Source: a virus. Taken from it: a DNA stretch of 39,636 nucleotides. The notes under the pieces were generated by a model. The model saw only the letters and a list, made by a program, of their open reading frames with translations. It was not told the origin of the DNA and searched no databases. The stretch lies in IMG/VR virus record IMGVR_UViG_3300037851_001094; one strand, written 5' to 3'. Made by a program: the position numbers and the translations under genes. Below, one piece after another: positions 10,529 through 39,636 of this stretch (positions are counted from its first letter, which is position 1; every line of letters begins with the position of its first letter).

Positions 10529-11098
10529 TTAGTTTACCGTGTAAATGATGGTTCCGGCAATCCCTGAACCGTTTACAAAATGAGTGTCATTTAAAATTAA
10601 ACTTGTAATACCGCTTCCAACGCCAAAAAAGTTTAAAGTTGTTCCAGGAGCGGTTTGAATACTAGAGCTTAAATAAGTAGTTGCTACCGGAAAAGTTACA
10701 GAGTTGGTTTGCACATTCCCTGTAGTTCCTACGTTGCTCGCTCCGGTTGTTACAGGCAAACTAGCAATGGCCATCGTTCCTACAGAAGTTCCTTTATTGA
10801 CCAAAGTAACGTTGAAATAGGCAGTAACAATATCCCCGACTTGTGTGTACCAGCCCAACTGAACTCCATAAACGATACCGACGCTTGCGCCCCCAAAAGT
10901 GACCGTAGGAGTCCAAGGGGTTGTGTTTGTAAAGGTCGTAACTCCAGTGTTCGTAATCGTGGGACTCCCTGCCGTTCCATCCCCGTTTGTGATATTTATC
11001 CCCGTCCCTGCGGTTAAAGTCCTTCCATTCCAAACCCCACCAGCGGTAATAGATTGGAATCCAGTTTGTGTTGCATCGACTGCGTTGTTAAAGCTCAT
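10529..11098 (-). CDS. tail-fibre tip protein (WTP jelly-roll-like C-terminal domain)
   Basis: 189 aa, G/T/N-rich. ...TPWTPTVTFGGASVGIVYGVQLGWYTQVGDIVTAYFNVTL...IASLP parallels the preceding gene. AAGGAG RBS; separated by a 105-nt AT-rich spacer. Confidence 0.65.
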   Translation of the reverse strand: MSFNNAVDATQTGFQSITAGGVWNGRTLTAGTGINITNGDGTAGSPTITNTGVTTFTNTTPWTPTVTFGGASVGIVYGVQLGWYTQVGDIVTAYFNVTLVNKGTSVGTMAIASLPVTTGASNVGTTGNVQTNSVTFPVATTYLSSSIQTAPGTTLNFFGVGSGITSLILNDTHFVNGSGIAGTIIYTVN

Positions 11099-11203
11099 AT
11101 AACTCCTTAATAATAAAACCCTATCATTTTAATTCGTAAATCAAAAGTTGGCTAATGTCATTTTTTCTTCTCAATAATTTAAATAACAAATATTTTAAAT
11201 TTT

Positions 11204-11650
11204 TTACACTAAATAAAATCCTGAAATATCTGCTGTTCCTGTATTATCCATTGAAACAGGCAAGTTAGTGTTGTTTGTACGTGTTCCCTCAAGGATGATC
11301 TGCGTCGATGATCCTTGAATCTCTCCCATGATCTGCACCGTTCCCGCTGGCAAAACGATGTTGGATAAATTTACCGTCACGTCGTAGTGGTAATTGGCCA
11401 AGTTCCTAGAGGTAAAAGGGAGTGTCTGGATCAGCATATTGCCCGTTCCCGTGTGGGCTGTCCAAGTAACTGTACCGGACAAAAATACCAGGTTCCCGAT
11501 TCGGGTATAAGTCCCTGCCTGGACAGTGTAAGTGCCTACGCCTGCTGCTGTCGACCCCGCAATTATCGGTGTCCAGCTTCCCTGATCTATGTACTGATCG
11601 AGAGAGTTGCTTGGAGTCATTGACAGATTAAGCGAGTTCGCATTAGACAA
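11204..11650 (-). CDS. tail-fibre tip protein (WTP jelly-roll-like domain)
   Basis: 148 aa. GSWTPIIAGSTAAGVGTYTVQAGTYTRIGNLVFLSGTVTWTAHTGTGNMLIQTLPFTS. Confidence 0.65.
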   Translation of the reverse strand: MSNANSLNLSMTPSNSLDQYIDQGSWTPIIAGSTAAGVGTYTVQAGTYTRIGNLVFLSGTVTWTAHTGTGNMLIQTLPFTSRNLANYHYDVTVNLSNIVLPAGTVQIMGEIQGSSTQIILEGTRTNNTNLPVSMDNTGTADISGFYLV

Positions 11651-11825
11651 GCGTTACCTCTTTCCAAACAGCTGCATCAGGTGTCAGATCAGTTGGCCAA
11701 AAAAGCTGTTCGGAAACTTCGTTAAACCAAAAAATCGGCGTTTTATAGTCGCTATCCAGCGCAGTAGGGCTGTGATCCGTTATGATCGTGTAACTGTTAC
11801 CAGTCGTGATTGGTTCGTTTGCCAA
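11643..11825 (-). CDS. small hypothetical protein within the fibre operon
   Basis: 60-aa ORF filling the gap between two fibre genes, with short overlaps. Confidence 0.45.
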   Translation of the reverse strand: MANEPITTGNSYTIITDHSPTALDSDYKTPIFWFNEVSEQLFWPTDLTPDAAVWKEVTLV

Positions 11826-11835
11826 TATAACTCCT

Positions 11836-13584
11836 TTACGATAAAGTCCAGTTGCCTATTACGCTCGTTGCGAACCAAATTGATCCCGTAGAGCGGAAAA
11901 CAAGCGTTAATGCATCCCCATCATCGCTGCTTGTGGCCAATCCGCCAGATGTCGAAATCGAGTTGCCAATTTGAATGAATTGTCCAGGTTGCGCATCTAC
12001 GACCAGAGTGGTAGCACCTACCCTCACAACTCCCAACGATGCGCCTTGCGCCGCACCAGCTTGTGTTGTGATGGTGACCGCTCCTCCCCCCGTAGCAAAA
12101 TATCCTTCATCATCTTGAGCTGTTACGTTCACCGCGGTGTCTACATAGGTAATCCCATTGATCGTGATGGTGTTCGAACCGTTTCCGCTAGTGCGGATTC
12201 CAGCTCCACCCACCAAGTTCATTTGGCCGCCAACCGATTGCGCAGTAGTCGCGCCATCCATAACCCAATCTGTAGGAACAGAACCGGCTACGTTTATGGT
12301 GATGGTGTTCCCCGCTCCAGTTGTACCTATATGCGATCCCGTGAGGATTTGTAGAGTATTCCCGACTGGGACGGCTGATCCCACATCCGCATTGTAGTTA
12401 GTGGCTACTGAACCTTCTACCGCCACTGTAATGGTGTTGCCTGCTCCGGATGTGTCAATTCCTGTACCACCCAAGACGTTTAGAACAGATGCCACAGGTG
12501 TTGCTGAACCAGCATCCTCAGTAAAAGTAATTGGAATGGAGCCTGATGCTTGAACAAACCCATCCGTTACAGTAAATTGGGATGAGTCAAAAGAAGCTAC
12601 TCCCCTTACACTGGATGCACCAGGGGCGACGTCCGTTTCTGCCCATGGCCTCCATCCAAATTTGATTTGGACTGTGGCAGGATCAATACCTGCTGCCGTA
12701 AGGGGATTGACGGCATCAGAACAATATTCATATTGCCCTGGGCCTGCAACATAATTGACTCCTCCACCCGTGACAATGAAACTGTTTTGATATGACCTGA
12801 CTACGGGGCCGCCAGCGGCAAAGTTTATAAGAGGATTAATAGATGTAAGCGAATTATAATTTAGGACGCACGTTCCACCTACCTGCATGTCGATACAAGA
12901 GCCGCCATTAGCTATGAGCTGAGATCTAGAAAACTCAATGTTTCCCCCCGCATTGTCAAAAACGATATTTCCATTGCTAGAGACTAAAATGCAGGTATCG
13001 CAAAACAATGAAGCAGGATTTTGTATGTCAAAACAGCTATTATTGGAATCTACTCTACAATCAAACATGCGAACAGTAGCCGAGCCTATTTCGTAAAATA
13101 CGGCTGAACTATTAGATGAACTCACATTGCACCGATTCATTTTAATATCGCTGTCTTGAGCATGAATGGCAAAATTTGTATTGGAAGTAAAGGTGCAATC
13201 TTCAGCCCATACAGTGCTTCCAGCTCCAACTAGATCGATAGCATATGCTGCGAGTCCCGAAATGAATAAATTCTCTAGCCTACAATCTCCTCCAACAGGA
13301 GCAGTTAGCGTTCCTTCAATTACGACTCTACCATAAGAGCCGCCTCCTGAAGAAACCCCACTAGATTGACATTCGACGCCAATGATATCTACGCCTGGCT
13401 GAAGCGTAATATTACCTACATAAGCGGAATTTTTATGGCGCACTAAAACAACGCTGCCACCCGCAGCAAAAGCATCCGTTACAGCATCCTGAATGGAGGT
13501 ATAATTAACCCCTGCACCTAACGTTTCTCCAACAACAAAAGATGTTGGGCCGAAATTGTTCGTGCTATTAGTCCTTCCTGGCAT
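11836..13584 (-). CDS. tailspike-like protein: N-terminal right-handed beta-helix (depolymerase-like) plus C-terminal fibre repeats and shared C-terminal domain
   Basis: 582 aa. PbH1-like coils (EDCTFTSNTNFAIHA, NRCNVSSSNSSAVFY, FDCRVDSNNSCFDIQ, CDTCILVSSNGNIVF), hinge GVASFDSSQFTVTDGFVQASG, three copies of the ...LGG.GI.TSGAGNTITV unit, C-terminus GDALTLVFRSTGSIWFATSVIGNWTLS. Confidence 0.75.
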   Translation of the reverse strand: MPGRTNSTNNFGPTSFVVGETLGAGVNYTSIQDAVTDAFAAGGSVVLVRHKNSAYVGNITLQPGVDIIGVECQSSGVSSGGGSYGRVVIEGTLTAPVGGDCRLENLFISGLAAYAIDLVGAGSTVWAEDCTFTSNTNFAIHAQDSDIKMNRCNVSSSNSSAVFYEIGSATVRMFDCRVDSNNSCFDIQNPASLFCDTCILVSSNGNIVFDNAGGNIEFSRSQLIANGGSCIDMQVGGTCVLNYNSLTSINPLINFAAGGPVVRSYQNSFIVTGGGVNYVAGPGQYEYCSDAVNPLTAAGIDPATVQIKFGWRPWAETDVAPGASSVRGVASFDSSQFTVTDGFVQASGSIPITFTEDAGSATPVASVLNVLGGTGIDTSGAGNTITVAVEGSVATNYNADVGSAVPVGNTLQILTGSHIGTTGAGNTITINVAGSVPTDWVMDGATTAQSVGGQMNLVGGAGIRTSGNGSNTITINGITYVDTAVNVTAQDDEGYFATGGGAVTITTQAGAAQGASLGVVRVGATTLVVDAQPGQFIQIGNSISTSGGLATSSDDGDALTLVFRSTGSIWFATSVIGNWTLS

Positions 13585-13591
13585 ATTTTAC

Positions 13592-15025
13592 CTATCCTAT
13601 TTTCCATGCGGCAAAGCGCGTTGTAATTAATGGAGGAGCATTTCCAGCTAAGGTAACCGTAAGTGTTGAGTTTGATACCACAAACCTAACTACAACAGTC
13701 TGCCCTGCTATTAAATCAATCACGTCATGACATAGCCAATTGAGAGAATTAGAGGTAAGCTCCCTCATAGCCCCTGCATTCTGGGATTGACCAACATAAG
13801 TGGTTCCAGCCGCTAAAAAGAAAGCCGTTCCTGAAGTGTGTGCTGCCCCGATGTTTAAGGCGGCTATTGTTGCTTCGAAAAAATATCTTCCATCAGAAGG
13901 AGCAGTAAATGTCCCTGTAGCATTGTCATAGACACCACCTTGGTCAAATATTTCCGTGTCGAATACAACTGTCACCGTCGTTCCGTTTCCTGTGGCGTTT
14001 AGGGTATTTGCCGACTTATAAGCAGAGAACATAGGCAAAGAGGAATTGTTGCCCGTCAAGTTAACAAACCCATCCGATACAGCAAATTGCGTGCTGTCGA
14101 AACATGCGGTTCCTCTTACGCCTCCAGGAAGCGTTGCATTAGCCGCTGTTCCGGCATGAGGCTGCCAATCCACAAAATTAGTAAGAATTGCATTGTTGAC
14201 CAAAGCAGTTCCCATCAACGCTAAATCATAGAATTCGAAAGTAGAAACATTGTCTATGTAATTTCCAGAAACAGCACTTGAATCAACAGAACAGTGTTCT
14301 AAATCGACTAATTCGCCATTATTTACGCCAAGAACCGCTTCTTGAGGGCAAGATATATTACAAAACTCCATCCTCATACGATTGCCTGTTCCTGTGATGC
14401 TCACACCATAGTCAACAGACGCATCAAAGATAGAGTTGAAAGCGCGCAGACGAGCATCGCCGCTCATCACTACCACAGTGCCCCCTTGGAGCTGCGAATT
14501 AATAATAAATATCGAATTATGCTCTAGAAAATCTGCCGCTATCAAAGTTCCGACAATCCGGCACTCTCGAAAGGCAAATTGAGATAAAGTTCCAGAAGTA
14601 TTGCTTACGACAACACCTCTATTTCCTTGAAGAGAGCAATTAGCGACATCGACTACAATCGTAGGGCCGACTCCTTGAATTACCAAAGCATCGGCGGGAT
14701 CAGTAATGGTTAGATTTTTCAGGGCATATTGAACTCCGCCAGCAGTCGTCGAATCAATCGTAACAGTTCCTGAAACTACAGCATTATTGGAGAAAACAGA
14801 ACCAGCAGCGACCCCTTCCACCAAAATTCCAGGAGCCATCGTAAAGCCGCTGTAAGAGCCTGGACGCACCAAAATAGTGCATGGATTGGCAGCAGTAAAG
14901 CCATCAGCAACAGCTTGAGTAATGGCCGACTGAATCGAAGTAAAGTTGCACCCATTCCCTAAAACAGTGCCAACCACATAACTAGATGGGCCAAACTTAT
15001 TTGTACTGTTGGAAGGGGATGCCAT
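13592..15025 (-). CDS. tailspike-like protein: N-terminal beta-helix plus C-terminal C1q/TNF-like domain
   Basis: 477 aa. N-terminus paralogous to 11836 and 15035 ORFs (NSTNKFGPSSYVVGTVLGNGCNFTSIQSAI), hinge GTACFDSTQFAVSDGFVNLTG, C-terminus FSAYKS...VVFDTEIFDQGGVYDNATGTFTAPSDGRYFF...LIAGQTVVV...TRFAAWKIG. Confidence 0.75.
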   Translation of the reverse strand: MASPSNSTNKFGPSSYVVGTVLGNGCNFTSIQSAITQAVADGFTAANPCTILVRPGSYSGFTMAPGILVEGVAAGSVFSNNAVVSGTVTIDSTTAGGVQYALKNLTITDPADALVIQGVGPTIVVDVANCSLQGNRGVVVSNTSGTLSQFAFRECRIVGTLIAADFLEHNSIFIINSQLQGGTVVVMSGDARLRAFNSIFDASVDYGVSITGTGNRMRMEFCNISCPQEAVLGVNNGELVDLEHCSVDSSAVSGNYIDNVSTFEFYDLALMGTALVNNAILTNFVDWQPHAGTAANATLPGGVRGTACFDSTQFAVSDGFVNLTGNNSSLPMFSAYKSANTLNATGNGTTVTVVFDTEIFDQGGVYDNATGTFTAPSDGRYFFEATIAALNIGAAHTSGTAFFLAAGTTYVGQSQNAGAMRELTSNSLNWLCHDVIDLIAGQTVVVRFVVSNSTLTVTLAGNAPPLITTRFAAWKIG

Positions 15026-15034
15026 AAACTTTCC

Positions 15035-16477
15035 TTAAGCTAAAACCCAGTTGCCCACTATACTTTCCGCACACCACCTAGTTCCTGCCGCGTAAAAAAC
15101 AAGAACGAGACAATCTCCAGTATTTGTGCCCGTGGCCGTACCACCGCCACTCGAAGTTAAACTTCCTACTTGGATAGTCTGGCCAACATTCGCTTGAACA
15201 ACTGTAGGGGAATTAATAGAGAAAATTCGGAATTGTTCACCTTGAGTTGGAGCTGCTGGGAGAGTGTAAGTATTGGGGCCGACATCGAAATATCCCGTGT
15301 CGACATTTAAGACCCCAGGCAAAGCAACATCAATCCATTCAACACTAGAGATGGTCATTGCCGCGCCAGCTCCGTTTGTCGTAACACCTGGGCCGCCTAG
15401 AATTTGAACTACCCCAGCTACAGGAGTAGCATTACCTGTGTCTCCATTAAGTTGGGTAATAGGCCCGCTTGTTGAACCAGAAATGCTGACAAAACCATCA
15501 GATACGCTAAAGTCGGTACTATTGAACGAAGCAGTTCCGCGGTTAGACCCCACTGCTGCTGCCGCTGATTCGCCATAAGGCTGCCAATTTAGTTTTTGTG
15601 AAGTAAGGGCAGCTCCAATACCTTGAGCAGTACCAGTTAAAGCAATATCCACAAAATCGACTTGACCGCCTGCACCATCTATCCAATTACCACTCGCAGC
15701 AGCAGAAGAAATTGTACAATGAGAAGCAACACATTGGCCACCACCAGCAGGGAAAAAAACAGCCTCATTTCCTGAAAAAATGTCAGTATGACTAAAAGTG
15801 GCGTTTCCATTCGCAACTACGCCGTTGAAAACATAAGAACTTGAAGATGCATTCCCATTTTCCACACTTAAACTTCCACTTCCAGCAGTTAGCAAGAAAA
15901 CATCTCCTGACGCAGAGTTGCACGAACCCAGGCTTAAAAGAGCGGCAGAAGATCCCGCGCCAATCGCTTCAAAACAATGAGAAGAGCTGCCAATATTGGT
16001 GTTGTCGGTAGAGAATTGACAGGCTGAAATAGCATCGGGATTGAAAACAATTGCTCTAGAAGCAGGATCAGTAGTCGCATCCAGCCCAGAAAACTTGCAA
16101 GCAAAGATGATCTGCGCACCCGCTGTTGCCGTCAAAGTGACAAGATCTCCAACAGTACATGTCAAGGAGATGTCGTTCATGATGCATACAGCAAATCCCC
16201 CAGCTTGCGTAAAGGTGTGATTCCCGCTGATTACTACATGTCCCAAGAAAGGAGGCAATCTCCCGTCTACCTGTTCGGCCCGCAGATTAACTCCAGAACG
16301 TAAAACGAGATTCTCGGTATAGGTTCCAGGCTTTATATAGACTTCGCCGCCGCCTGCCGCAAAACAATCATCAATTGCGCTTTGTACGGTAGAATAGTTG
16401 CAGCCGTCTCCTAAAACCGGTCCTACAAGGAAAGGCGATGAAAAGAATTTGTTATCGCTAGAGTTTCTTCCTGGCAT
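15035..16477 (-). CDS. tailspike-like protein: N-terminal beta-helix plus shared C-terminal fibre domain
   Basis: 480 aa. MPGRNSSDNKFFSSPFLVGPVLGDGCNYSTVQSAIDDCFAAGGGEVYIKPGTYTENL, hinge GTASFNSTDFSVSDGFVSISG, C-terminus GDCLVLVFYAAGTRWCAESIVGNWVLA. Confidence 0.75.
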   Translation of the reverse strand: MPGRNSSDNKFFSSPFLVGPVLGDGCNYSTVQSAIDDCFAAGGGEVYIKPGTYTENLVLRSGVNLRAEQVDGRLPPFLGHVVISGNHTFTQAGGFAVCIMNDISLTCTVGDLVTLTATAGAQIIFACKFSGLDATTDPASRAIVFNPDAISACQFSTDNTNIGSSSHCFEAIGAGSSAALLSLGSCNSASGDVFLLTAGSGSLSVENGNASSSSYVFNGVVANGNATFSHTDIFSGNEAVFFPAGGGQCVASHCTISSAAASGNWIDGAGGQVDFVDIALTGTAQGIGAALTSQKLNWQPYGESAAAAVGSNRGTASFNSTDFSVSDGFVSISGSTSGPITQLNGDTGNATPVAGVVQILGGPGVTTNGAGAAMTISSVEWIDVALPGVLNVDTGYFDVGPNTYTLPAAPTQGEQFRIFSINSPTVVQANVGQTIQVGSLTSSGGGTATGTNTGDCLVLVFYAAGTRWCAESIVGNWVLA

Positions 16478-16552: not shown

Positions 16553-17353
16553 TTAAGCTAAGATCCAGTTGCCAGCAGCTCCAGGAACACAGACCCAAAC
16601 TTGACCAACCGCTCTAAAGACAAGCCTTAAAGAATCGCCTATTTGAGTGCTGGTAGCAGTTCCGTTTACACTAGAACTTGTATTGCTAATGCGGATCAAA
16701 TCGCCGCCTTGGGCAGTAACAACCACACCCCCGCCGATGAAGTCAACGATTTCGACCATATCGCCATTAATCGCACCAGCAGGGAGCGTATAAGCGGCTG
16801 CGGCCGTTGCAAAATATCCTGTATGGTTAGCAAGCGCACCGCCAGCAGAATCGAGCCAGGAAGTAGTCCCGCTCAAAGCAGAGACGAAGCCATTACCATC
16901 AACAGTGAATTGAGCTGAGTTGAAAGAACAAAGACCCACGTTATTGGCTACACTTCCTGCCGCTGCAATAGCTCTTTGAACTTCAATTTGATAAGTATTG
17001 GCCGCCAAAGAATTGCTTCTTACTGGGATAGATTGAGCAGCAACGACAGCGCCATTGACTGTCATCAAACCAGCGCCTGTAGGAACCACAGGATTTGTTC
17101 CAGGAGCTGTAAAAGCTTGAACAGCGATGCTATCGACTCCGACTGAACCGCCAGCTAAATCAATAGTAATGTTTGGAGCCGAATATCCAATTGTGATAGT
17201 TCCTAAAGGAGAAGTAAGATTACCTACCCGAATATTAGGAGCTGCTGTAGACCCGATTAAGAGCTCACCGTTTGTTGTGACTTGCCCTGGGAATTTAGCC
17301 CCGTCAAAGCGTACGTTGTCAGCGTACATTACATCATTATCAAAACCTGCCAT
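16553..17353 (-). CDS. tail-fibre protein with shared C-terminal domain
   Basis: 266 aa. Hinge GLCSFNSAQFTVDGNGFVSALSG; C-terminus GDSLRLVFRAVGQVWVCVPGAAGNWILA. Confidence 0.7.
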   Translation of the reverse strand: MAGFDNDVMYADNVRFDGAKFPGQVTTNGELLIGSTAAPNIRVGNLTSPLGTITIGYSAPNITIDLAGGSVGVDSIAVQAFTAPGTNPVVPTGAGLMTVNGAVVAAQSIPVRSNSLAANTYQIEVQRAIAAAGSVANNVGLCSFNSAQFTVDGNGFVSALSGTTSWLDSAGGALANHTGYFATAAAAYTLPAGAINGDMVEIVDFIGGGVVVTAQGGDLIRISNTSSSVNGTATSTQIGDSLRLVFRAVGQVWVCVPGAAGNWILA

Positions 17354-17366
17354 ATTATATCTCCTA

Positions 17367-18347
17367 TTATGGGGCTGTTACGGAGCGCAAAACTGCGCGC
17401 CATTCAATAGTTAATCCAGCGACTCCAGTAACTTGAACAATTGCGTTATTGCCAGCGATGACCACCGTTGCATCTGCTGCAAGCATGGCCGCTTCTTCAT
17501 TAGAAGTGACATCTGGGGTGCCGGTCAAAAATCCAGCGACTCCTGTAGTTCTTGCCCCTGCAATAACAGAATAAGAAGCTCCTACTGGAGTTCCAGGACC
17601 TGCGCTTGCAAACCCAGCAACTAAAACGTCGAAAGCGACTGTTGCAGGGACTGCAGGCAAAGTGAAAGTGATTACGTTGCCTGTTACTGCTCCCACAGTT
17701 GTTACAGTTCCAGAAGTAGTACCGGATAACTGAACAAAGCCTGTTGTGACGGTGAATTGTGTTGAGTCATAACTAGAGACTCCTTTTTGAGCCGTTATGA
17801 TCGTTCCAGCCGTTGCATCAGCGGCTGTTACTGTGACGGTAGAGCCTGCTCCAGAAGTAGAAATCCCTTGAACCGCAGTACCAAGAACGTTTAAGTTTCC
17901 GGCAGCGGGAATTGCAATTCCTGCATCTGTAGTGTATTGAGAAGCAAGCAATGCGCCAGCAGTCAATTGGTCGCCAACAATAGTGATTGTTGTGCCATCA
18001 ACTTTGACGTTAATATTTACAATCCCAGGAGGGCCCGGGGTAATGTTTATTGCTCCGGCATTTGTAAGATTGATATTGCCTGCAAGTGGAGCAACACCGT
18101 TGAGTGTAGAAAGCGCGCCTGCGCCCCCACCAACTGGAATCCAGCTAGCAATGTTGTTTGATTTGGAAACCAAAACATACGCAGATCCGGCTGATTTGTC
18201 GATCCATCGATCGCCGACATTATACCCATGAAGGTCAGAGGTCGTTGGAGGTCTTCTTCTTACAAAGTTATTGCCGGGGGTAAAATCTGTAATCCCCAAG
18301 TAGGCCATGTTGTTTGTAAGAGCAGTTGGAGTTGATGTAATAGTCAT
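17367..18347 (-). CDS. tail-fibre protein with N-terminal anchor-like motif
   Basis: 326 aa. FVRRRPPTTSDLHGYNVGDRWID...WIPVGGG parallels the 22682 ORF; hinge GVSSYDSTQFTVTTGFVQLSG; first gene of the fibre operon. Confidence 0.7.
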   Translation of the reverse strand: MTITSTPTALTNNMAYLGITDFTPGNNFVRRRPPTTSDLHGYNVGDRWIDKSAGSAYVLVSKSNNIASWIPVGGGAGALSTLNGVAPLAGNINLTNAGAINITPGPPGIVNINVKVDGTTITIVGDQLTAGALLASQYTTDAGIAIPAAGNLNVLGTAVQGISTSGAGSTVTVTAADATAGTIITAQKGVSSYDSTQFTVTTGFVQLSGTTSGTVTTVGAVTGNVITFTLPAVPATVAFDVLVAGFASAGPGTPVGASYSVIAGARTTGVAGFLTGTPDVTSNEEAAMLAADATVVIAGNNAIVQVTGVAGLTIEWRAVLRSVTAP

Positions 18348-18625
18348 GAGATTCTTCCTTGTAAGCTTTCGTCAAATGGCAACCCAAAGCTCGAGAAAGC
18401 CTCTACAAGAAGAGCCGTTCTAAAGCCGAGGTAGCCCAATGGAGTGACTTTTGGCGCAGCCATTGTTTTTGCTCGGTTATGTATTCGCGTCACCGATACT
18501 GCCTGGTATTGGTAACTAAAATCTTTACTTACATTAAAATAATAATTATGTCAACGAAGTGGAAAAAAAAGATGGTTGTGCATTAATCGACGAGAATGTA
18601 TGTTAGGTCTTTTACAGGAGTATCT

Positions 18626-19324
18626 ATGAAAAAAGCAGTCCTTGGATTGACAGCCGTTACAGCACTCGCAACCGTTGGAATCAGAAGTGAAGAACCCTCA
18701 AAAATTCTAGACAAACATCACTTCAGCATTGGCCCTACGGTCATGAAGCCGAACATGAAATTTGAAGGAAAATATTCTTCCAGGTTTAATCCTTGGATGC
18801 GAAATCTTAACCAGGTTTTCTATGGTCTAAAATTTGGGTATGAGTACTTAAGCGAAGATGCTTTTTATTTCGGTGCTGATCTTCATTCAGGTATCCATCA
18901 GTGCGCGGGGCGCGGAGATTGGTCTTTGGGAAAGATGGACTTGCGCTTTGGCTATACCCTTCCGTTCTTTTCCATTTTCGATAAACACTGGGATGTATCC
19001 ATTTTTACGGGCTTTGGAGGCTATGCGTGGAAGGATGCCTTCGGAGACAGCTATGATACCCCCTTTTGGCACCTCGGTGCTAGAACCCGAATCATTACCG
19101 GTCAAAACATGGATCTTGGATTACACGTCAAATGGCTGGCTTTCCAAGACACACATGAAACCAATAGAGCTAAATTTTTTGGAGCCGAAGTCGGACTGCC
19201 CTTTACATTCAAACCTCTCCAAAGTGGGTGGGAGTTTTCTTTGGCTCCTCATTTCGTTCATATGTGTCGCACGAGTTCACAGAATGTTATGCATTATGAG
19301 CTCAAGGCAACAAGGCGGTTTTAG
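18626..19324 (+). CDS. outer-membrane beta-barrel protein with signal peptide (Lom/Ail/OmpX-like moron)
   Basis: MKKAVLGLTAVTALATVG signal peptide after an AGGAG RBS (ORF track starts at 18596). Alternating amphipathic strands (LRFGYTLPF, VSIFTGFGGYAW, DLGLHVKWLAF, FGAEVGLPFTF, WEFSLAPHFVH), C-terminal ...ATRRF. Antisense to flanking virion genes. Confidence 0.75.
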   Translation: MKKAVLGLTAVTALATVGIRSEEPSKILDKHHFSIGPTVMKPNMKFEGKYSSRFNPWMRNLNQVFYGLKFGYEYLSEDAFYFGADLHSGIHQCAGRGDWSLGKMDLRFGYTLPFFSIFDKHWDVSIFTGFGGYAWKDAFGDSYDTPFWHLGARTRIITGQNMDLGLHVKWLAFQDTHETNRAKFFGAEVGLPFTFKPLQSGWEFSLAPHFVHMCRTSSQNVMHYELKATRRF

Positions 19325-22681: not shown

Positions 22682-23446
22682 TTAAACGACGTTAAAATTT
22701 CCCTGGCTGCTTAATACATCCCATTCAGTATCGGCAGTGATACAAACTAACCTCACACAGCCTCTTTGAGTGAAAGTAGTGATATTTCCTCCAGGAGTAG
22801 TTGTTTGATTTCCAAAATAGATTGTTTGTCCCACATTAGGCATCAATTGCCATAAACCGGCCCCTTTCCCAGCCACTTCTTGGATGGTTCCGACAGGCGC
22901 CACAGCAGGCAAAGTTAATGGCACTAATCCTCCAGCATTGGCAATATAACCGGTATTTGGCGCCATAAGAGTTGGAATCGCCACTTCTATCCAAGTAAAC
23001 GAAGGTGGAATAACGCCAATGAAGGTTAGTTGGTTGCCAACTATTCCGATCGTGACGTTATCCACTTGAACCGCGGCGTCCATTTGGCCTAAACCGCCAT
23101 TCGAGAATTTAATAGCTCCTGTGGCGCCTCCCAGGAGGTCAATATTTAAACCTGAAGGATTCACGACTAACCCATCGTCTCCAGTCAAGGTGTTTAATAG
23201 ACCGGTACCAGCAGTAATAGGGAGCCAAATAGCAATATTGGCTTCTTTGCTATTGAGAATGAAAAATTCTGGGGTTAATTTGTTGTACCAAAGATCGCCT
23301 ACATCGTATTCTTTAAAATCGGTAATTTCTGGGTCTCGCTGTCGAACCACAATATTGGGAGGATTTGTCTCTTTTAGGCCTTGATAGCCCAGAGAGTTGG
23401 TATTCGGAATTGGCATAAGTAAGTACTCTTTTCTTACATCTACCAT
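22682..23446 (-). CDS. tail-fibre/adaptor protein with N-terminal anchor-like motif and shared C-terminal domain
   Basis: 254 aa. VVRQRDPEITDFKEYDVGDLWYN...WLPITAG, TLTGDDGLVVNPSGLNIDLLGG unit, C-terminus RGCVRLVCITADTEWDVLSSQGNFNVV. Alternative start at ATG 23416. Confidence 0.65.
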   Translation of the reverse strand: MVDVRKEYLLMPIPNTNSLGYQGLKETNPPNIVVRQRDPEITDFKEYDVGDLWYNKLTPEFFILNSKEANIAIWLPITAGTGLLNTLTGDDGLVVNPSGLNIDLLGGATGAIKFSNGGLGQMDAAVQVDNVTIGIVGNQLTFIGVIPPSFTWIEVAIPTLMAPNTGYIANAGGLVPLTLPAVAPVGTIQEVAGKGAGLWQLMPNVGQTIYFGNQTTTPGGNITTFTQRGCVRLVCITADTEWDVLSSQGNFNVV

Positions 23447-24078: not shown

Positions 24079-24526
24079 ATCCGGCGTAAGCCGCTGGCAC
24101 TGTTAAGATGACTTGTGTGGTATTAACTTCCAACATCGACGTATTCGCCCCCCCTTGAGGGAACGGAACCCACAAAGTCCCGCCGGCATTTTTTCCCGTT
24201 CCATAAATATGAGTGAATGTAAATGCCGGCGTCGTAGTGATGCCGTGATTCTCAGCATTCGCACCCGCGACCAGTGCAGCAGAAAACGGAACCACTTTGC
24301 GGAACGTTTGGCGCGCTTGTTGAGCATTAGCAGGGTCAAAGTACTGCTGACCAGTCAATTGCTCTTGTAGGAAGAATGCGCCTATTTCTCGGGCATTTAC
24401 ATTGTTAGCGATGTCTTTGTACAAATTTGTGAGCACAACCCTAAACTCGGATTCATCCTCGGGGAAGTATTGGCTCGTCTTGAGGAAGGGAGACAAAGCA
24501 TTTATAGGCTGGAAATTGAGCGTCAT
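24041..24526 (-). CDS. virion structural protein (tail-associated, function unknown)
   Basis: 161-aa ORF; ATGA overlap with the 949-aa gene upstream. Confidence 0.55.
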   Translation of the reverse strand: MTLNFQPINALSPFLKTSQYFPEDESEFRVVLTNLYKDIANNVNAREIGAFFLQEQLTGQQYFDPANAQQARQTFRKVVPFSAALVAGANAENHGITTTPAFTFTHIYGTGKNAGGTLWVPFPQGGANTSMLEVNTTQVILTVPAAYAGFTAIVILEYLKN

Positions 24527-27372
24527 GTAATCAACCGTCCAGTTGGTGAAAACGAGAAAATTAAACCATGAAGCGTTACGTCACTGAAAGAAATTGTAGG
24601 ATTGCGAATTTGAGAATTCATTGTACAGCCACTTACGGGATCTAAAACGCCATCATTCAGATTCATGCTTAGCTGGATAAAAGAACCGGAAGTATTGGAA
24701 TAGACCCGATGCCAGATTTTTTCTTGCAAGTCTTGAAAAGAGGGGCCAACTTGATCAGGAGAAGTATTCATAATGTCCGATTTAACAACCGTATTAACAT
24801 CATAAGAAGAAAGATAATCGATATTAATTTGGCCCCCATCTGTGCTTTCTGCAAGAATATCGATTCGAGGCAAACGGACGCCTCTTCCTTCTTTATAAAA
24901 GGGATTATAAAGCTTTGTGCGAATATCAAAATTCTGGACGATTCTTATGGTCCCCCCTCCTTGATATACGCCGGCAAAAGCCTTGCAGTTATCTATGACA
25001 AAAGAGTTAGTCAATGTACTCATGACTTGATAGATGCCATCGATCGGCGCATCGGGATCGGCGGTTGTAACTCCAACAGGATTGAATAGCTGAACGAATT
25101 GGCCAACTTTAAGGTTATGGTTTACAGAAGTGATCGTACAGTTTTGAGTCGTAGTCATATTATCTAAACAAAGCACCGGATCATTTTTAAAGATTCCCAA
25201 GGATTGATTGATGATCATTACAAACCCTTGTTGATTCCCCGCAACGACCAAAGGATATTTAGCAAATTTAGCATTGGAAACCCAGGTGTATCCAGGGCTA
25301 TTCCAGGGAAATTTAGCCTGGGCCCACGTTAGGTCTGTTGCTGACTGGAAGTATCCAAAACAAGTAAATGAGTCGTCGAAATTGGCAAAAGAGCCATCGA
25401 GATAGTTATAAACTAAAAATCGACTAGGATAGACGAGCTGTTCAGAAGCCACAGGGAAAGTCCAATAAACAAGCTGAAATGTATAATCTCTGATGCCATG
25501 GACCCGTTTGACCCCATTATTTAAGTTGGCAAAATCAAAAACCTCATCGGGGATCTTTTGATCCAATCGGGCGACATTGACACTATTGCACGTTGTAATC
25601 CCATAATTCCCGACAGCAAAGACCCCTTGATCGAAAGGCACCACTGAAAAAGTAGATTCACAACCAAGCTCTGTGTTGATCTTTTGGAAGACAAAGGGAA
25701 GAACTTCATTCCCCGTATAAACGAGTTGCCAAGTAGAGCGCTCAAAATAGACAATTAAAGTATCTTTAATGAATTCTACAGAGACTATAGCCTCATTCGT
25801 AGGCGCATCAATAAAGCCGCCCTTTCCTGGAGTATCACTCCACCAAGCGTCTTGTTGAGCCGCTTGGTTAGCTGGAAGCTCAAAAGTTCCGTTTGGCGCA
25901 ACAAAAGGAGGTGGCGATACATTTCCTACATAGAAAGGCGTTCCGTTTTGGGACCATCGAGCCCTTTGAGCAAAATTTACTGGAGCATTTACAGCATCGC
26001 CTTCGAACGTGTTAAAACAGATTAACCTGTCTTTATATGTAACGATAGCCAAACACCCTCTTAAAAATTGGATTTGCGTTTGATCTGTAGGATTATTCAA
26101 TGGAGGCTGGAAATTTACCCACCCAACATCAGGAATGGTGCCAGGTCCATCATACCAACGAATTCCATCTCCAGAGCCTCCGACTGAAGCAGCATTTCCG
26201 CGAGCAACAAGATAAGCCACCCCTCCGCTTATATAAGCTGTAAAACCTGTAGAATTGATGTTAACTGTAAAATTTCCTGCGGCAATTGCAGTTACGGTTC
26301 CAGTTAAACCATTAATTTCTGTCATGCCCAAGACGTGCGTAAATCCAATGACATCGCCGACTTGGAAAGGATGAGCCGCCAATGATACAACGGCGGCGGC
26401 AGCTTGAGTGATATTGGAAATAAGCGAGAAGGCATAGCTGCCCACAACATCATTTGTGGTCCACAGGGCGCCGCGCCAATTATAGGTCCAAAAAAAGTTA
26501 AAGTCCGTACCAATCCAAGAAAAAGGAGTTGTAACACTCGGAGGATCGTCCGGCGTTTTATAAAAAGTTACATCTAAAAAGTCGGCATTAAAAAAGTAAG
26601 ACTTTTGCGTGTCAAATGCCACCAAACCTTCATCGTTTAAGGAAGAGGCTTCTCGAGTTCTGAGGCCCATAACAGGAAGGCAAGGAGCAAAACTATAACT
26701 TACCGTAGCCGTATAAGGACCTCCGGCTGGGAGAGAATTGAAGAAAATCGTAAATGCACCAGTGAGATAGTTTATGACATTGAAATTCGGTCCTACGGTC
26801 GCGATCCGATTCGCTGTTCCACCCGACACATATGGATTGAAAAGCGTGCTATCGACATTGATATCGAAAGTATTTCCAACGACATTTGAGACTGTAAAGG
26901 TATTTCCATTAAGTTCAAACATCCCTTGAATTCCATCGAAATGAACTTGATCTCCAGCCGCAAAATATACAGGAGCGCTCAAAGTTACATTCGCAGGATT
27001 GGCGTTGGTGATATTCGTAACCGTATCTGGAGCTGTAGTTTCTGCAAGCCTTCCATCCCCTAAATCTTCAAAAGTCACCGGAGGAACAGAGTTGATTGTG
27101 ATTGTAATTGTTCCTGGAGCCACAGGAAGGCTAGTTAATAAACCCGATAAAGTTGTCGATGCTGCCAGAATTCCGGCAAATGTCTGAGTTACTTGTCTCT
27201 TTAGGCGACCATCGGGGCCTACAGCTAGATATCCCGATTTTCTTTCAATTCTGCCCCTAAAAAGATAACAGTTCTCTAAAGCTGGGAAGCTGTCATTATC
27301 AGGGAGGAAAGGCTCTACATCTCTGCGTACACCATCTCGGAGATTGACAACAGCATAAGGTGCCATTCCCAT
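24523..27372 (-). CDS. large tail (nozzle / tail-tubular-B-like) protein carrying three inserted small beta-barrel repeats
   Basis: 949 aa, beta-rich and not tape-measure-like; largest virion gene; position after capsid/adaptor genes. Repeats such as ISNITQAAAAVVSLAAHPFQVGDVIGFTHVLGMTEINGLTGTVTAIAAGNFTVNINSTGFTAYISGG. Confidence 0.55.
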   Translation of the reverse strand: MGMAPYAVVNLRDGVRRDVEPFLPDNDSFPALENCYLFRGRIERKSGYLAVGPDGRLKRQVTQTFAGILAASTTLSGLLTSLPVAPGTITITINSVPPVTFEDLGDGRLAETTAPDTVTNITNANPANVTLSAPVYFAAGDQVHFDGIQGMFELNGNTFTVSNVVGNTFDINVDSTLFNPYVSGGTANRIATVGPNFNVINYLTGAFTIFFNSLPAGGPYTATVSYSFAPCLPVMGLRTREASSLNDEGLVAFDTQKSYFFNADFLDVTFYKTPDDPPSVTTPFSWIGTDFNFFWTYNWRGALWTTNDVVGSYAFSLISNITQAAAAVVSLAAHPFQVGDVIGFTHVLGMTEINGLTGTVTAIAAGNFTVNINSTGFTAYISGGVAYLVARGNAASVGGSGDGIRWYDGPGTIPDVGWVNFQPPLNNPTDQTQIQFLRGCLAIVTYKDRLICFNTFEGDAVNAPVNFAQRARWSQNGTPFYVGNVSPPPFVAPNGTFELPANQAAQQDAWWSDTPGKGGFIDAPTNEAIVSVEFIKDTLIVYFERSTWQLVYTGNEVLPFVFQKINTELGCESTFSVVPFDQGVFAVGNYGITTCNSVNVARLDQKIPDEVFDFANLNNGVKRVHGIRDYTFQLVYWTFPVASEQLVYPSRFLVYNYLDGSFANFDDSFTCFGYFQSATDLTWAQAKFPWNSPGYTWVSNAKFAKYPLVVAGNQQGFVMIINQSLGIFKNDPVLCLDNMTTTQNCTITSVNHNLKVGQFVQLFNPVGVTTADPDAPIDGIYQVMSTLTNSFVIDNCKAFAGVYQGGGTIRIVQNFDIRTKLYNPFYKEGRGVRLPRIDILAESTDGGQINIDYLSSYDVNTVVKSDIMNTSPDQVGPSFQDLQEKIWHRVYSNTSGSFIQLSMNLNDGVLDPVSGCTMNSQIRNPTISFSDVTLHGLIFSFSPTGRLIT

Positions 27373-28022
27373 TAGATCACCATAAATCCTATAATGGTGC
27401 CATTCGCCCCAACTCCACCCATTTGAATTCGAAAAGAATTGGGCATTTTATTAGTTATGTTTGCACTTGAACCAAATCCCTCGGTAAAAACAAAAACAAA
27501 ATAAGAATCATAACTAAGATTTTGAAGAAAAGTGACATCAAATGCGGTATTATTACGGTTTACACTTCCAGCAGGACCAACCTGACCTGGATTCATATTT
27601 ATAATTAAACTATCGGATGCAGCAGGTGGAGGAGCTCCGGGAAGCACATTTTGTAGCCCGTTTGGACCTAAAACAAAACGACACATACATTTAATGGAAG
27701 GAAGCAAAGTTATTTGCTGGGCTGCCGATTCTCTGGTGCCTGCAAAATATAGTTCATGTGTAAAGCCTGGCGCCGGTGTTGCAGCCGCTTTCCCGAAGTT
27801 CTTTTGATAAATCCTTCCTTTTGGATAAGGAAGGGCAGGATCAACTTGAATAGTAGAAAAAGTCGTTTGCTTATGTTCGCCCGAACTGGAATTGGCAGGC
27901 GTTACTATATCTACGTGATCGACTCCAAAAGATGCATTTGTACGAGAAAAGTTAACCTGCATCCGAGGTTGATCTGCACTTAAGAAGTTATTGGGAGCCG
28001 GAATATTTGGATCGTAAGTCAT
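27372..28022 (-). CDS. virion structural protein (tail-associated)
   Basis: 216 aa; TAATG overlap with the 949-aa gene; N-terminus PNIPAPNNFLSADQPRMQVNFSRTNASFGVDHV. Confidence 0.5.
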   Translation of the reverse strand: MTYDPNIPAPNNFLSADQPRMQVNFSRTNASFGVDHVDIVTPANSSSGEHKQTTFSTIQVDPALPYPKGRIYQKNFGKAAATPAPGFTHELYFAGTRESAAQQITLLPSIKCMCRFVLGPNGLQNVLPGAPPPAASDSLIINMNPGQVGPAGSVNRNNTAFDVTFLQNLSYDSYFVFVFTEGFGSSANITNKMPNSFRIQMGGVGANGTIIGFMVI

Positions 28023-28683
28023 GATTATCCTTTCGTAATAGTCCTTTTAAAATTTTACATATACACGAAGGATAAACATTAAACAAGCGTGCGATATCTT
28101 TTTGTGGCATATTTTGCGCCTTAAGTTCTTTTATTTTTTTAATATCTTCATCGGTTAACTTTGCCATCCCATGACGAGAACCTTTTCTTATGCCGACTAA
28201 TCCTTCTTTTAGACGCTTTTTCACATTTTGAGGCGAACATCTAAATTGCGCCGCAATTTTATCCAAAGACAAACCTTGAGACCGAAGAACTTTCATTTGC
28301 TCGATTATTTCTGGAGAGAGTTTGTAGAATTTTTTTCTGTCTCTTCCTTTAGTGATCATGTCATGCATATTTTCTTTAGGAGTGCCTAAAAAAAGATGTC
28401 GAGGATTCGTACATTCCGGGAAATCACAAGTATGACAAACAAACATTCCAAGGGGAATTTCTCCTTTGAAAATTTCATAAGAAATTCTAGAAGCATTATG
28501 TGTTTTCCCTTTTATTGTTAATTGACCATGTCCAAATTGGGAACGACATCCTATCCATTCCCAACAATCATCTTCCGTTTTTCCTTTTTGAACTTTCTCC
28601 ATCATGCGACACTTCAAAGAACAAAAAAAATCTTGTTGATATTTTCTTTTAAAAATCTGACTGCAGAATTTGCATATAGCCAT
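27988..28683 (-). CDS. free-standing HNH homing endonuclease with two C-terminal HTH modules
   Basis: CWEWIGCRSQFGHGQLTIKGKTHNASRISYEIF...VCHTCDFPECTNPRHLFLGTPKENMHDM (HNH_3-type pattern), plus LSPEIIEQMKVLRSQGLSLDKIAAQF and LTDEDIKKIKELKAQNMPQKDIARLF. GGAG RBS. Confidence 0.85.
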   Translation of the reverse strand: MAICKFCSQIFKRKYQQDFFCSLKCRMMEKVQKGKTEDDCWEWIGCRSQFGHGQLTIKGKTHNASRISYEIFKGEIPLGMFVCHTCDFPECTNPRHLFLGTPKENMHDMITKGRDRKKFYKLSPEIIEQMKVLRSQGLSLDKIAAQFRCSPQNVKKRLKEGLVGIRKGSRHGMAKLTDEDIKKIKELKAQNMPQKDIARLFNVYPSCICKILKGLLRKDNHDLRSKYSGSQ

Positions 28684-30231: not shown

Positions 30232-31191
30232 TTAAACAACCAAACCGCGTTCAGCGCGCCAATTGATAATGTGGCCTGCTGCACCTACAACGGAAGAGCC
30301 TAATCTCATGCCGATAACGGCAGTGTTGATTGTGGCGCCAGCCAGTGTTGGTGTGTTATCCGCCATCGGTACAACCTCTGCAAATTGGCCAAAATAATTG
30401 ACGAAAGATGCAGGGAAGGCAAAAGCAGAAAACGCTGTGCTATCGATATTTACGTCGATAGTGTTTGTAGAACCAGCAGAGTCGGCAAGACCTACTGCTG
30501 TAATGATCCCTACCAAACCGTTCATTTGCGTCATTCCAAAGCTTGCAGGAATGTTCAGCCTTACTTCCTGACCAACAGTTAAACCGTGGGTTACAGACAT
30601 AGTAATTCTGGCCTGAGCAGCTTGAGAAATTTTTGTCGCAAAACGACGTCTTGGATAGAAATACGGCTCAAATGGAACCAATCTTGCAGAAACAGCGGTA
30701 GCTGGAGCTGCAAAACCTGATGTATCCATATCGCGCAATTGGAACGAAACACCTGCAACAACGTTATCTACGGTAAAGTCCATACCAGCAATTTGGAACA
30801 TGCCAGTCGTATTAGTAATACGAACAACATCGCCATTTTTGAAAGTATGTCCTGCCAAAGCAACAACTGCTGCTGGAGCTTGGCTTACTGCGCCTGCTGG
30901 ACCTTGCAGAGGGCCGAGGGCGCCGCTGGAGGTGTCAACAAGGAGAAAACCGTTCGTTGCAGTGAAAGTTTCTAAAACGTCAGTTGGCCCGACGTTAGAA
31001 GTTCCAAGGATCGCAGAGTCAGGGCTCATCCCGACATTCCAGTTTGCCCACCAAAGGACAGACGCTGCGTTCGCATTGATGTTCGTGACATCAAATGTAG
31101 TAAAATGGGTGCAACCAGGAACCGAAATGATTCTTGGAAGCCCATCAGAAACATAGCTACCCGTAAGGATAGATGAAGTAGATAAACTCAT
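30232..31191 (-). CDS. capsid-associated protein (decoration / head-fibre candidate) with two small beta-barrel repeats
   Basis: 319 aa, immediately downstream of the major capsid gene. Repeats APAAVVALAGHTFKNGDVVRITNTTGMFQIAGMDFTVDNVVAGVSFQL and ARITMSVTHGLTVGQEVRLNIPASFGMTQMNGLVGIITAV. Confidence 0.5.
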   Translation of the reverse strand: MSLSTSSILTGSYVSDGLPRIISVPGCTHFTTFDVTNINANAASVLWWANWNVGMSPDSAILGTSNVGPTDVLETFTATNGFLLVDTSSGALGPLQGPAGAVSQAPAAVVALAGHTFKNGDVVRITNTTGMFQIAGMDFTVDNVVAGVSFQLRDMDTSGFAAPATAVSARLVPFEPYFYPRRRFATKISQAAQARITMSVTHGLTVGQEVRLNIPASFGMTQMNGLVGIITAVGLADSAGSTNTIDVNIDSTAFSAFAFPASFVNYFGQFAEVVPMADNTPTLAGATINTAVIGMRLGSSVVGAAGHIINWRAERGLVV

Positions 31192-38949: not shown

Positions 38950-39636
38950 GAAATAATTATAAATCGTTCTTAGGTGTCAAACGTGGGAAATTTACGTGCA
39001 TCGGGGAATTCTGTAAGCTTCCCACGAATGGTCATATCTTTGTACTCTTAAAATGCGACTGCGGGGCTGTCTTTTCGCGTTTAAAACACGCGTTTGCCGT
39101 TACTTCCTATACCATTTGCCCGGAGTGTAACATTCCGAAGCATGGCGATCGATTCGGGCGTCTTACATTCATCTCTTTAGCAACTTATAAGTCAGATCGT
39201 GGCCGTATGGGTGTTTGCAAATGCGACTGCGGAAAAGAGATAGACGTTCCCATTACCAACTTAAAGAACGGCTTTAAAAAATCATGTGGTTGCTGGTATA
39301 AACAACACCTTTTTTCCAAAGACAAGTCTGACCACCATATCGGGAAGAAATATCACCACTTCAAGGTTTTAAAGTCGTTAGGATTGCGCCCAAATGGAAA
39401 ACAACATATCACTTTTTTCCTATGCAAATGCGACTGCGGGCAGAAATTCGAAGTCTCAACCCGCAGAATAGGGATCATAACATCTTGCGGTTGCAAAAGA
39501 AAAGACAGAGGCAAGATAGACTACGAAAAGGCTGAAGAAATTAGAAAAATGTTCTCTTTTGGCTATAAAATATGTCAACTAGCAAAGATGCATAAACTCT
39601 CATACTTCAACATTAGAGATATTATCAATAGACGCT
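38946..39636 (+). CDS. zinc-ribbon-repeat/HTH protein, 5' part (runs off the window end and continues at 128..273)
   Basis: GTGA overlap start at 38946. Three units (LKCDCGAVFS...ICPEC; CKCDCGKEIDVPITNLKNGFKKSCGC; CKCDCGQKFEVSTRRIGIITSCGC); no stop before the window end. Absent from the ORF track because it is open-ended. Confidence 0.65.
   Translation, partial: MRNNYKSFLGVKRGKFTCIGEFCKLPTNGHIFVLLKCDCGAVFSRLKHAFAVTSYTICPECNIPKHGDRFGRLTFISLATYKSDRGRMGVCKCDCGKEIDVPITNLKNGFKKSCGCWYKQHLFSKDKSDHHIGKKYHHFKVLKSLGLRPNGKQHITFFLCKCDCGQKFEVSTRRIGIITSCGCKRKDRGKIDYEKAEEIRKMFSFGYKICQLAKMHKLSYFNIRDIINRR
39510..39636. repeat. Terminal direct repeat copy 2 (exact copy of 1..127)
   Basis: Base-for-base identity with nt 1-127. 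Confidence 0.95.

Follow-up and report, generated by a model that had tools for sequence, protein, structure and literature searches.

Anchorless beta-helix fibre proteins encoded in tandem by a phage genome, and their fused and split relatives

Three adjacent genes, here called A, B and C, in the genome of the uncultivated tailed phage IMGVR_UViG_3300037851_001094 of IMG/VR (39,636 nucleotides, analysed over its full length and referred to as the window) on balance probably encode anchorless modular receptor-binding fibre or spike proteins of the usual polarity, split-off pieces of a mosaic fibre system that likely dock by a short N-terminal peptide. Each protein consists of a conserved N-terminal peptide, a beta-helix cassette, a hinge and a C-terminal tip, and in relatives the same modules occur both as separate proteins and fused into long single chains. 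Phage host range is set by receptor-binding proteins (RBPs). What is known of how one virion carries several of them, by anchor, gp10-like branching domain or docking peptide, comes from a few enterobacterial phage groups. Of interest here are the attachment of anchorless cassettes and the fibres that carry up to five or six beta-helix cassettes per chain. An initial annotation of the window had the anatomy of these proteins largely right; the polarity that it assigned to them is corrected here to the ordinary one.

Modular anatomy of the three proteins

The three genes and their segments are as follows.

15035-16477, minus strand: gene A, 480 aa, beta-helix cassette fibre without anchor and with an XD1-like tip; 66 metagenomic homologs
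16451-16477, minus strand: A residues 1-9 (MPGRNSSDN), conserved N-terminal peptide, candidate docking peptide
15587-16450, minus strand: A residues 10-297, pre-cap strand (NKF..FLVG), AlgE-like cap (LGDGCNY..VQSAI..AAGGG) and about 11 right-handed beta-helix coils
15473-15586, minus strand: A residues 298-335, WQP and hinge motif RGTASFNSTDFSVSDGFVSISG, probable trimeric neck
15344-15472, minus strand: A residues 336-378, one shaft repeat, D.G.A.P..G...ILGG.G..T...G...TI, from alignments
15038-15343, minus strand: A residues 379-480, C-terminal GNW.L beta-sandwich tip, like gp9, TSP4 XD1, CpaA and StcE
13592-15025, minus strand: gene B, 477 aa, N-terminal peptide, cassette, hinge and gC1q-like head
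14168-14998, minus strand: B residues 10-286, cassette
14054-14167, minus strand: B residues 287-324, hinge
13595-14053, minus strand: B residues 325-477, gC1q-like head
11836-13584, minus strand: gene C, 582 aa, N-terminal peptide, cassette, hinge, three shaft repeats and XD1-like tip
12655-13557, minus strand: C residues 10-310, cassette
12538-12654, minus strand: C residues 311-349, hinge
12154-12537, minus strand: C residues 350-477, three shaft repeats
11839-12153, minus strand: C residues 478-582, XD1-like tip

The initial annotation had described three tandem paralogs with near-identical starts, and the reading frames, their positions and their relationship were all recovered. BLASTP comparisons between the proteins (A-C 7e-45, A-B 4e-34, B-C 8e-24) indicate true paralogs, with identities of 40-60% over residues 1-20, 38-49% over residues 21-60, 22-24% in the helix body and 50-55% in the hinge. 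The divergence of the central coils, which had also been pointed out, is consistent with different ligands. Each ATG is preceded by a plausible ribosome-binding site and by an in-frame stop 2-13 codons upstream, with no other start between, and the gaps between the three genes are 7-9 nt. They lie inside the fibre cluster of the structural operon, where gaps are 7-75 nt and no terminators occur; scans for promoters and terminators were uninformative, giving counts near or below the shuffle expectation.

The window starts and ends with the same 127 bases (1-127 = 39510-39636, exact match), which marks it as complete: a phage genome of about 39.5 kb that either assembled as a circle or is terminally redundant. 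This leaves no room for an anchor exon beyond the window, and together with the in-frame upstream stops it rules out that the genes extend further upstream or have a hidden anchor exon, in line with the earlier statement that no start further upstream adds an N-terminal anchor. The TAA that ends A and the ATG that starts B lie three codons apart in a shared frame (15026-15037), which is probably coincidental because B-type and C-type cassettes fuse in relatives via a different linker.

An AlphaFold2 model of A, built from a 45-sequence alignment, shows a right-handed beta-helix over about residues 18-295 with a predicted local distance difference test score (pLDDT) above 90, a low-confidence stretch at residues 300-365 and a confident beta domain at residues 380-480. 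Modelling covered A; for B and C the fold is taken from homology to A and from Pfam. Foldseek matched the helix of A to the A-modules of the mannuronan C5-epimerases AlgE4 and AlgE6, to PfbA, YbhC and pectin methylesterase (PME) at prob 1.0 and to the PL6 alginate lyase AlyGC at 0.98-1.0, with TM-scores of only 0.28-0.32 against the AlgE, PL6 and CE8 matches; the HK620 tailspike was also among the matches. In a search of the family profile against the PDB, residues 22-70, with the cap LGDG..Y..IQ.AID.A.AAGGG..Y.., aligned with residues 11-70 of AlgE6/AlgE4 (E 4e-5). The Pfam family Beta_helix (PF13229) matched C residues 100-259 just above its cut-off (26.9 vs 25.9 bits), B with only 15.9 bits and A not at all; the three proteins are homologous across the whole helix. 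The fold is thus predicted to be a pectin-lyase-like right-handed beta-helix that begins about 18-22 residues after Met1. Both the fold and the start of the helix close to Met1 had been read correctly from the sequence, and the strings of Cys, Asn and Ser in the coils are present in C.

The enzymatic label fared less well. Depolymerases and esterases had been named as the likely identity of the helices, and AlgE4/AlgE6, PL6 and CE8 proteins are indeed their best structural matches, unlike which A, B and C have no detectable catalytic motifs. Regular expressions for the AlgE, PME, PL1 and GH28 motifs, a crude method, were all negative on the three proteins; they included QDT.. and DFIFG-type Asp residues, which we take to be the CE8 signature, and YG(F/I)DPH(D/E), presumably the catalytic motif of AlgE A-modules. 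Pectinesterase (PF01095, threshold 27 bits) gave no match for A, B or C, and in the family its matches were sub-threshold and mostly confined to the cap. A CE8 pectin methylesterase was rejected on this account: the best-scoring relative, P0047, reached 23.9 bits, over profile positions 7-75 (the cap) only. Because no catalytic motif was found and no family threshold reached, depolymerase activity is a hypothetical function here. To our knowledge, the AlgE, PL6 and CE8 enzymes are monomeric and not fibre-borne. A search against PHROGs returned only a weak match of C to phrog_677 (E 8e-4), which is not relied on.

The middle coils of the A orthologs contain invariant polar residues (D71, N86, H87, D111, K128, R141, Q154-N161, E170, E238 and D267), and the strand register suggests that H87/D111/R141/E170 and K128/D158 are stacked on consecutive coils. 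The set is not conserved in B or C, which fits distinct ligand sites. We suggest that the cassette is most likely a binder of a surface polysaccharide, which it may also modify or cleave, with coils that differ between A, B and C; by analogy with PfbA, a purely binding function is possible.

The helix is followed by the motif RG.ASF.S.QF.V.DGFV, which is shared with other fibres, as had been noted, and occurs in five fibre open reading frames (ORFs) of the window. It has low pLDDT in the monomer models and is probably a trimeric neck, the trimer being our inference. The motif recurs up to 6 times within single longer relatives, which makes it a shaft or neck unit of general use and not a unique hinge. 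It is also the only part of the proteins that is matched in cultured phages, namely in tail fibres of Synechococcus phages S-B43 and RN05-S and of the Methylophilales phage Melnitz.

Residues 296-480 of A were modelled separately with AlphaFold2, and the last approximately 100 residues had pLDDT values of 91-98. The best Foldseek match of this model in the PDB was the N-terminal region of CBA120 TSP4 (prob 1.0, TMq 0.41-0.46), followed by the Pa223 capsid spike, the KP1 baseplate protein, the Solidus tailspike gp83 and CpaA (6o38); sequence identity to the TSP4-N/CpaA group was only 13-17%. The structure 6O38 is that of the Acinetobacter baumannii protease CpaA, whose glycan-binding repeat modules share the fold of TSP4 XD1, T4 gp9 and gp10 XD1, and the CpaA and StcE versions of this module bind glycans (PMC8825819). 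We read the GNW.L domain as an XD1/CpaA-like beta-sandwich tip of about 100 residues, an assignment to XD1 that is based on the shared CpaA match, the aligned residues not being reported by Foldseek. One family member gave a weak match to the Pfam family StcE_b-sandwich. In BFVD the tip module had 242 matches at E <= 1e-3, mostly uncultured tailed-phage proteins, some of them annotated as tail fibres, and also some giant-virus proteins, one of which is annotated as collagen-repeat-containing. Unlike the N-terminal region of TSP4 (AD-XD1-XD2), the sandwich of A stands at the extreme C-terminus of the fibre, with no XD2 or XD3 after it.

The initial annotation had placed a shared fibre domain last in all three proteins. 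This holds for A and C, which end in the GNW.L tip, as does the neighbouring 266-aa fibre F2. It does not hold for B, whose last approximately 150 residues are gC1q-like: Pfam C1q (PF00386) matched residues 343-390 at 30.5 bits against a cut-off of 23.7, over only about 40% of the profile, and sequence matches in the PDB were to cerebellin-1 (E 3e-8), C1q and EMILIN-1. This head is read as an alternative tip. In the relative P0039 the tip is replaced by a Gly-rich C-terminus while the N-terminus is kept, and the XD1-like tip is also found on fibres of four different N-terminal classes. The C-terminal module can therefore be exchanged against a constant N-terminus. Reading the C-terminus as an endosialidase-type intramolecular chaperone was dropped, there being no match to Pfam Peptidase_S74 at E <= 1.

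Fused and split relatives

Three anchor-bearing fibre-like proteins encoded in the window serve for comparison with the relatives.

16553-17353, minus strand: F2, 266 aa, directly upstream of A; N-terminus of anchor type (MAGFDNDV...), then hinge and XD1-like tip; lacks a cassette
17367-18347, minus strand: F1, 326 aa, F1-type N-terminal anchor (about 150 aa), hinge and a different tip
22682-23446, minus strand: 254-aa protein, F1-type N-terminal anchor (BLASTP to F1 39% over 148 aa, E 1e-24)

Several relatives carry the cassette downstream of such anchors. A 786-aa protein of L001 begins with about 150 F1-type residues (E 2e-27), followed by a cassette with 36% identity to A residues 8-346 (E 4e-44), repeats and a tip. 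P0139 and P0197 start like F2 (MAGF[DK]N[DE]V...) and continue with a shaft repeat, one cassette, the hinge and a tip; the tip of P0197 closely resembles that of F2 by eye, so that this protein is F2 with an inserted cassette. In P0106 and P0128 the cassette is likewise downstream of an N-terminal anchor domain.

Other relatives join cassettes in series. Residues 1-325 of P0068 are 65% identical to B 1-325 (E 3e-147), and the B-type helix is followed by a shaft repeat, the pre-cap sequence EDRRWLSAFVVD, a C-type cassette and a GNW tip. P0071 is built in the same way, its second cassette matching C 35-359 (E 2e-49). P0067 (2127 aa; L018 10001-16384, on a contig of 39,156 bp) starts with an F2-type N-terminus (matching F2 3-76, E 1e-6) and continues with five cassettes spaced at about 360 residues. 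A hinge stands behind every cassette, one tip closes the chain, and the third cassette shares 52% identity with A. Proteins of this kind (P0067, P0068, P0071, P0073 and P0074) contain 2-5 cassettes in one chain and always a single terminal tip, and the shaft repeat that links cassettes in fused relatives is the same as that of A. Single fibre proteins of 1500-2850 aa occur in relatives, and P0075, P0081 and P0176 each have five to six matched profile stretches. A literature search for multi-helix fibres found no described precedent, which does not prove absence.

We quantified these arrangements with an exhaustive hmmsearch using a profile of the three window cassettes, which retrieved 1743 cluster representatives (50% identity), 287 of them at E <= 1e-10. 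Among the best 150 of the 1743, 90 were helix-first and 54 had the cassette embedded behind N-terminal extensions of 12-842 residues, while 44 had a length of 700 aa or more and at least two matched stretches. Matches began mostly at profile positions 8-15 in embedded proteins and at positions 1-5 in helix-first proteins, indicating that MPGxxNS is specific to the anchorless forms and that NK(R)F..(Y/F)(I/V)V(G/D) is part of the cassette itself. In the five embedded proteins with matches extending closest to the N-terminal peptide, no tip precedes a cassette. The family is large and entirely uncharacterised, its matches to cultured phages being limited to the hinge, and the beta-helix cassette is an insertable unit that is found on its own without an anchor, downstream of anchors of at least four kinds, or in up to five or six copies per fibre.

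Fused and split relatives together provide a natural map of the modules that belong together. For the polarity this comparison is the decisive evidence: it puts anchors N-terminally and tips C-terminally, and the F2-A-B-C cluster reads as a split version of such fibres, proximal at the N-terminus and distal at the C-terminus. We offer one reason for the helix standing first in A, B and C, namely that the genes are fragments split off from a mosaic fibre system. Split and single-chain forms are also found in the related lineages of T5 and DT57C: LtfA and LtfB of DT57C are two proteins, thought to form a branched fibre, as opposed to the one polypeptide of T5 Ltf (PMC4728585). Those proteins are unrelated to the present ones and have no beta-helix cassettes.

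Orientation and attachment to the virion

Each protein runs from an 8-9-residue conserved peptide through a cassette of about 280 residues, WQP with the RG.ASF..xF.V.DGFV hinge and 0-3 shaft repeats to a tip; the N-terminus of A, B and C would be proximal to the virion and the C-terminus distal. The short peptide would most likely dock on one of the anchor-bearing fibres F1, F2 and the 254-aa protein, or else on a tail protein, as in the secondary RBPs of K1-5, SP6, KP32 and KP34. A, B, C and 45 homologs share the conserved sequence MPG[RW]xNSxN, the conservation of M1, G3 and N9 in the homologs being 98-100%. Few parts of the family are as conserved as residues 1-20, which have a top-residue frequency of 0.72 compared with 0.48-0.65 in the helix body, and residues 1-9 of A are disordered in the monomer model (pLDDT <50).

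Conserved N-terminal peptides of 7-11 residues directly before the beta-helix are a feature of the secondary RBPs of K1-5, K1E, SP6, KP32 and KP34 (PMC6872550), where they dock the protein onto a primary RBP or adapter, and such peptides have been experimentally validated as docking elements (PMC13352976). The present system resembles these phages (including KP32 gp38 and the KP34-type second RBPs), whose branched RBP systems form a group with those of G7C and CBA120, in that anchorless proteins with a peptide of about this length stand in tandem beside an anchor-bearing RBP. It differs in the lack of sequence similarity, in the hinge after the helix, the shaft repeats (in A and C) and the separate tip, and in the serial fusion of cassettes in relatives; no gp10-like XD2/XD3 or adapter was identified in the window, and docking is a prediction.

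A central right-handed beta-helix followed by a C-terminal domain is likewise the plan of the P22, HK620, Sf6 and CBA120 TSP1-3 tailspikes, and we infer the same orientation. A, B and C differ from these canonical tailspikes in the absence of a folded N-terminal particle-binding domain and in what comes after the helix: in place of a small caudal domain they have a hinge, in A and C also shaft repeats, and then a head that is lectin-like or gC1q-like.

Several observations weigh against N-terminal docking of split-off pieces. Residues 9-20 belong to the cassette in fused forms too (NKRF..YVVD), and only about 8 residues are unique to helix-first proteins, the conservation of which could have another cause. 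No docking partner was identified among the window proteins, and T4 gp10-like XD2/XD3 domains were not detected in Pfam and PHROGs searches of the fibre proteins or in a PDB sequence search made with F1 only, all of low sensitivity; the one gp10-like domain seen was the XD1-like fold, from Foldseek of the A tip. Among solved structures, the C-terminal region of A comes nearest to the N-terminal part of CBA120 TSP4, a region of anchoring and assembly, and on this structural likeness a protein-protein role of the tip is conceivable. Finally, with regard to glycan processing, A, B and C stay below the thresholds and lack the catalytic motifs of CE8, AlgE and PL1.

A different arrangement would be a non-covalent chain or branch in which the XD1-like tip of an anchor-bearing fibre (F2 foremost, perhaps also A and C) receives the N-terminal peptide of the next protein, so that F2-A-B-C rebuilds a multi-cassette fibre. 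The tip is structurally nearest to the TSP4-N assembly region, fused relatives show the modules working together, and a cassette-less anchor-type fibre with hinge and GNW.LA tip always directly precedes the MPG-type genes in the window, L001, L005, L007 and L008, a position compatible with a role as primary RBP. The tip of this upstream fibre is conserved (C.PGAGGNW.LA) and its N-terminus variable, F2 giving tblastn identities of 52-65%; F2 is a candidate primary or adapter fibre. We nevertheless regard such a chain as unlikely, since in every fused protein inspected the cassettes are joined by hinge and shaft repeat, never by a tip, and since B and P0039 have no XD1-like tip. XD1, unlike XD2 and XD3, is moreover reported to be unable to bind trimeric partners across the threefold axis (PMC8825819). 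The more specific version, in which A, B and C join by the 8-residue peptide to the F2 tip (or hinge) and to each other in a branched or serial "beads-on-a-string" polyvalent fibre, is doubtful to the same degree. If true, a small podovirus-like phage would build from separate genes what its relatives encode as multi-helix fibres of 800-2800 aa, and the C-terminal domain would be both tip and docking platform, a new type of branching module.

The cassette conservation of residues 9-20, shared with embedded forms, would also be expected if the N-terminus were merely a structural cap. Attachment would then use another surface, such as hetero-association of hinge or shaft with F1 or F2, or the proteins would be free, soluble glycan-binding or glycan-degrading proteins released at lysis. 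The hinge is common to all the fibres and no docking platform was found. Against this, positions 1-8 (M1, P2, G3) are highly conserved only in helix-first forms, the genes sit in the fibre cluster of the structural operon, with short gaps and no terminators, and fibre-typical tips favour virion-borne proteins. We give this explanation little weight.

Least probable, and not supported by the relatives, is the inverted polarity put forward in the initial annotation, with the C-terminal domain mounted on the virion and the beta-helix pointing outward. In its favour, the C-terminal domain is common to A, C and F2 and recurs across phages, the helix body is the most variable part and the tip fold resembles part of a baseplate-anchoring region. 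Against it, the tip is replaceable (gC1q-like in B, Gly-rich in P0039) while the N-terminus is constant, the same tip ends fibres that are already anchored N-terminally (P0066, P0053, the L001 786-aa protein and P0139), multi-cassette fibres have an N-terminal anchor and one tip at the far C-terminus, gC1q is the C-terminal distal head in known collagen-stalk proteins, and helix-first spikes with a 7-11-residue N-terminal peptide are already known. The alternative mentioned in the same annotation, that the C-terminus is a trimerisation or tip module and attachment lies elsewhere, is closer to the findings than C-terminal attachment.

Other fibre genes and genome setting

Docking of A, B and C by the N-terminal peptide remains the reading that we prefer, and the window offers further fibre-like genes beside those listed above. 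Counting the anchor-sharing 254-aa protein of the tail module, whose last residues are GNFNVV, the fibre-like genes of the phage number at least eight or nine. Downstream of C are small fibre or tip genes.

10529-11825, minus strand: ORFs of 60, 148 and 189 aa, small fibre or tip genes

The 60-aa ORF (TTG start, strong ribosome-binding site) overlaps the tip-like 148-aa ORF (TTG start) by 8 nt (11204-11825, minus strand); they could be a pair of small genes or one fibre gene interrupted by a frameshift. L001 and L005 encode proteins with 68-69% identity to the 148-aa product. A second tip-domain family is shared by the C-terminus of F1, the 148-aa ORF and the 189-aa ORF (10529-11098, 11204-11650 and 17367-18347, minus strand; E 2e-5 and 8e-9) and is also present in L018.

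The genome has genes for both terminase subunits (small and large), the portal and the major capsid protein, and a recombination and replication module with RusA, ERF and a PD-(D/E)XK nuclease; no tRNA genes were found in the window. Its portal is only about 24% identical to the portals of BcepMigl-like and KPP25-like podoviruses. A blastn search with the 4.6-kb region of A, B and C against 50,697 phage records gave no match, and tblastn of the three proteins against the same records gave matches at the level of the hinge or none. Related contigs of about 37-41 kb are frequent in metagenomes. A scan of viral contigs gave no matches with a single protein as query and matches with a 12-sequence alignment. 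Scans of genome contigs for a host, with A and with the outer-membrane-protein-like moron described below, returned no match in either case. The lineage is apparently aquatic, because the hinge matches are in phages of Synechococcus and Methylophilales.

Four other genes of the window deserve mention.

24523-27372, minus strand: 949-aa virion protein with two E1_FCCH-like domains (PF16190, E 2e-26)
30232-31191, minus strand: 319-aa gene directly after the capsid gene
27988-28683, minus strand: HNH_3 and helix-turn-helix homing-endonuclease-like gene inside the structural module
18596-19324, plus strand: 242-aa ORF between the 517-aa virion gene and the fibre cluster, on the opposite strand

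Both the 949-aa and the 319-aa protein match PHROG 584, and they could be tail or decoration proteins. The 242-aa ORF has no Pfam match and no relative in the genome collection; with its signal-peptide-like N-terminus and C-terminal Phe it may encode an outer-membrane beta-barrel-like moron. In L001 its slot is occupied by an SSB gene, on the opposite strand.

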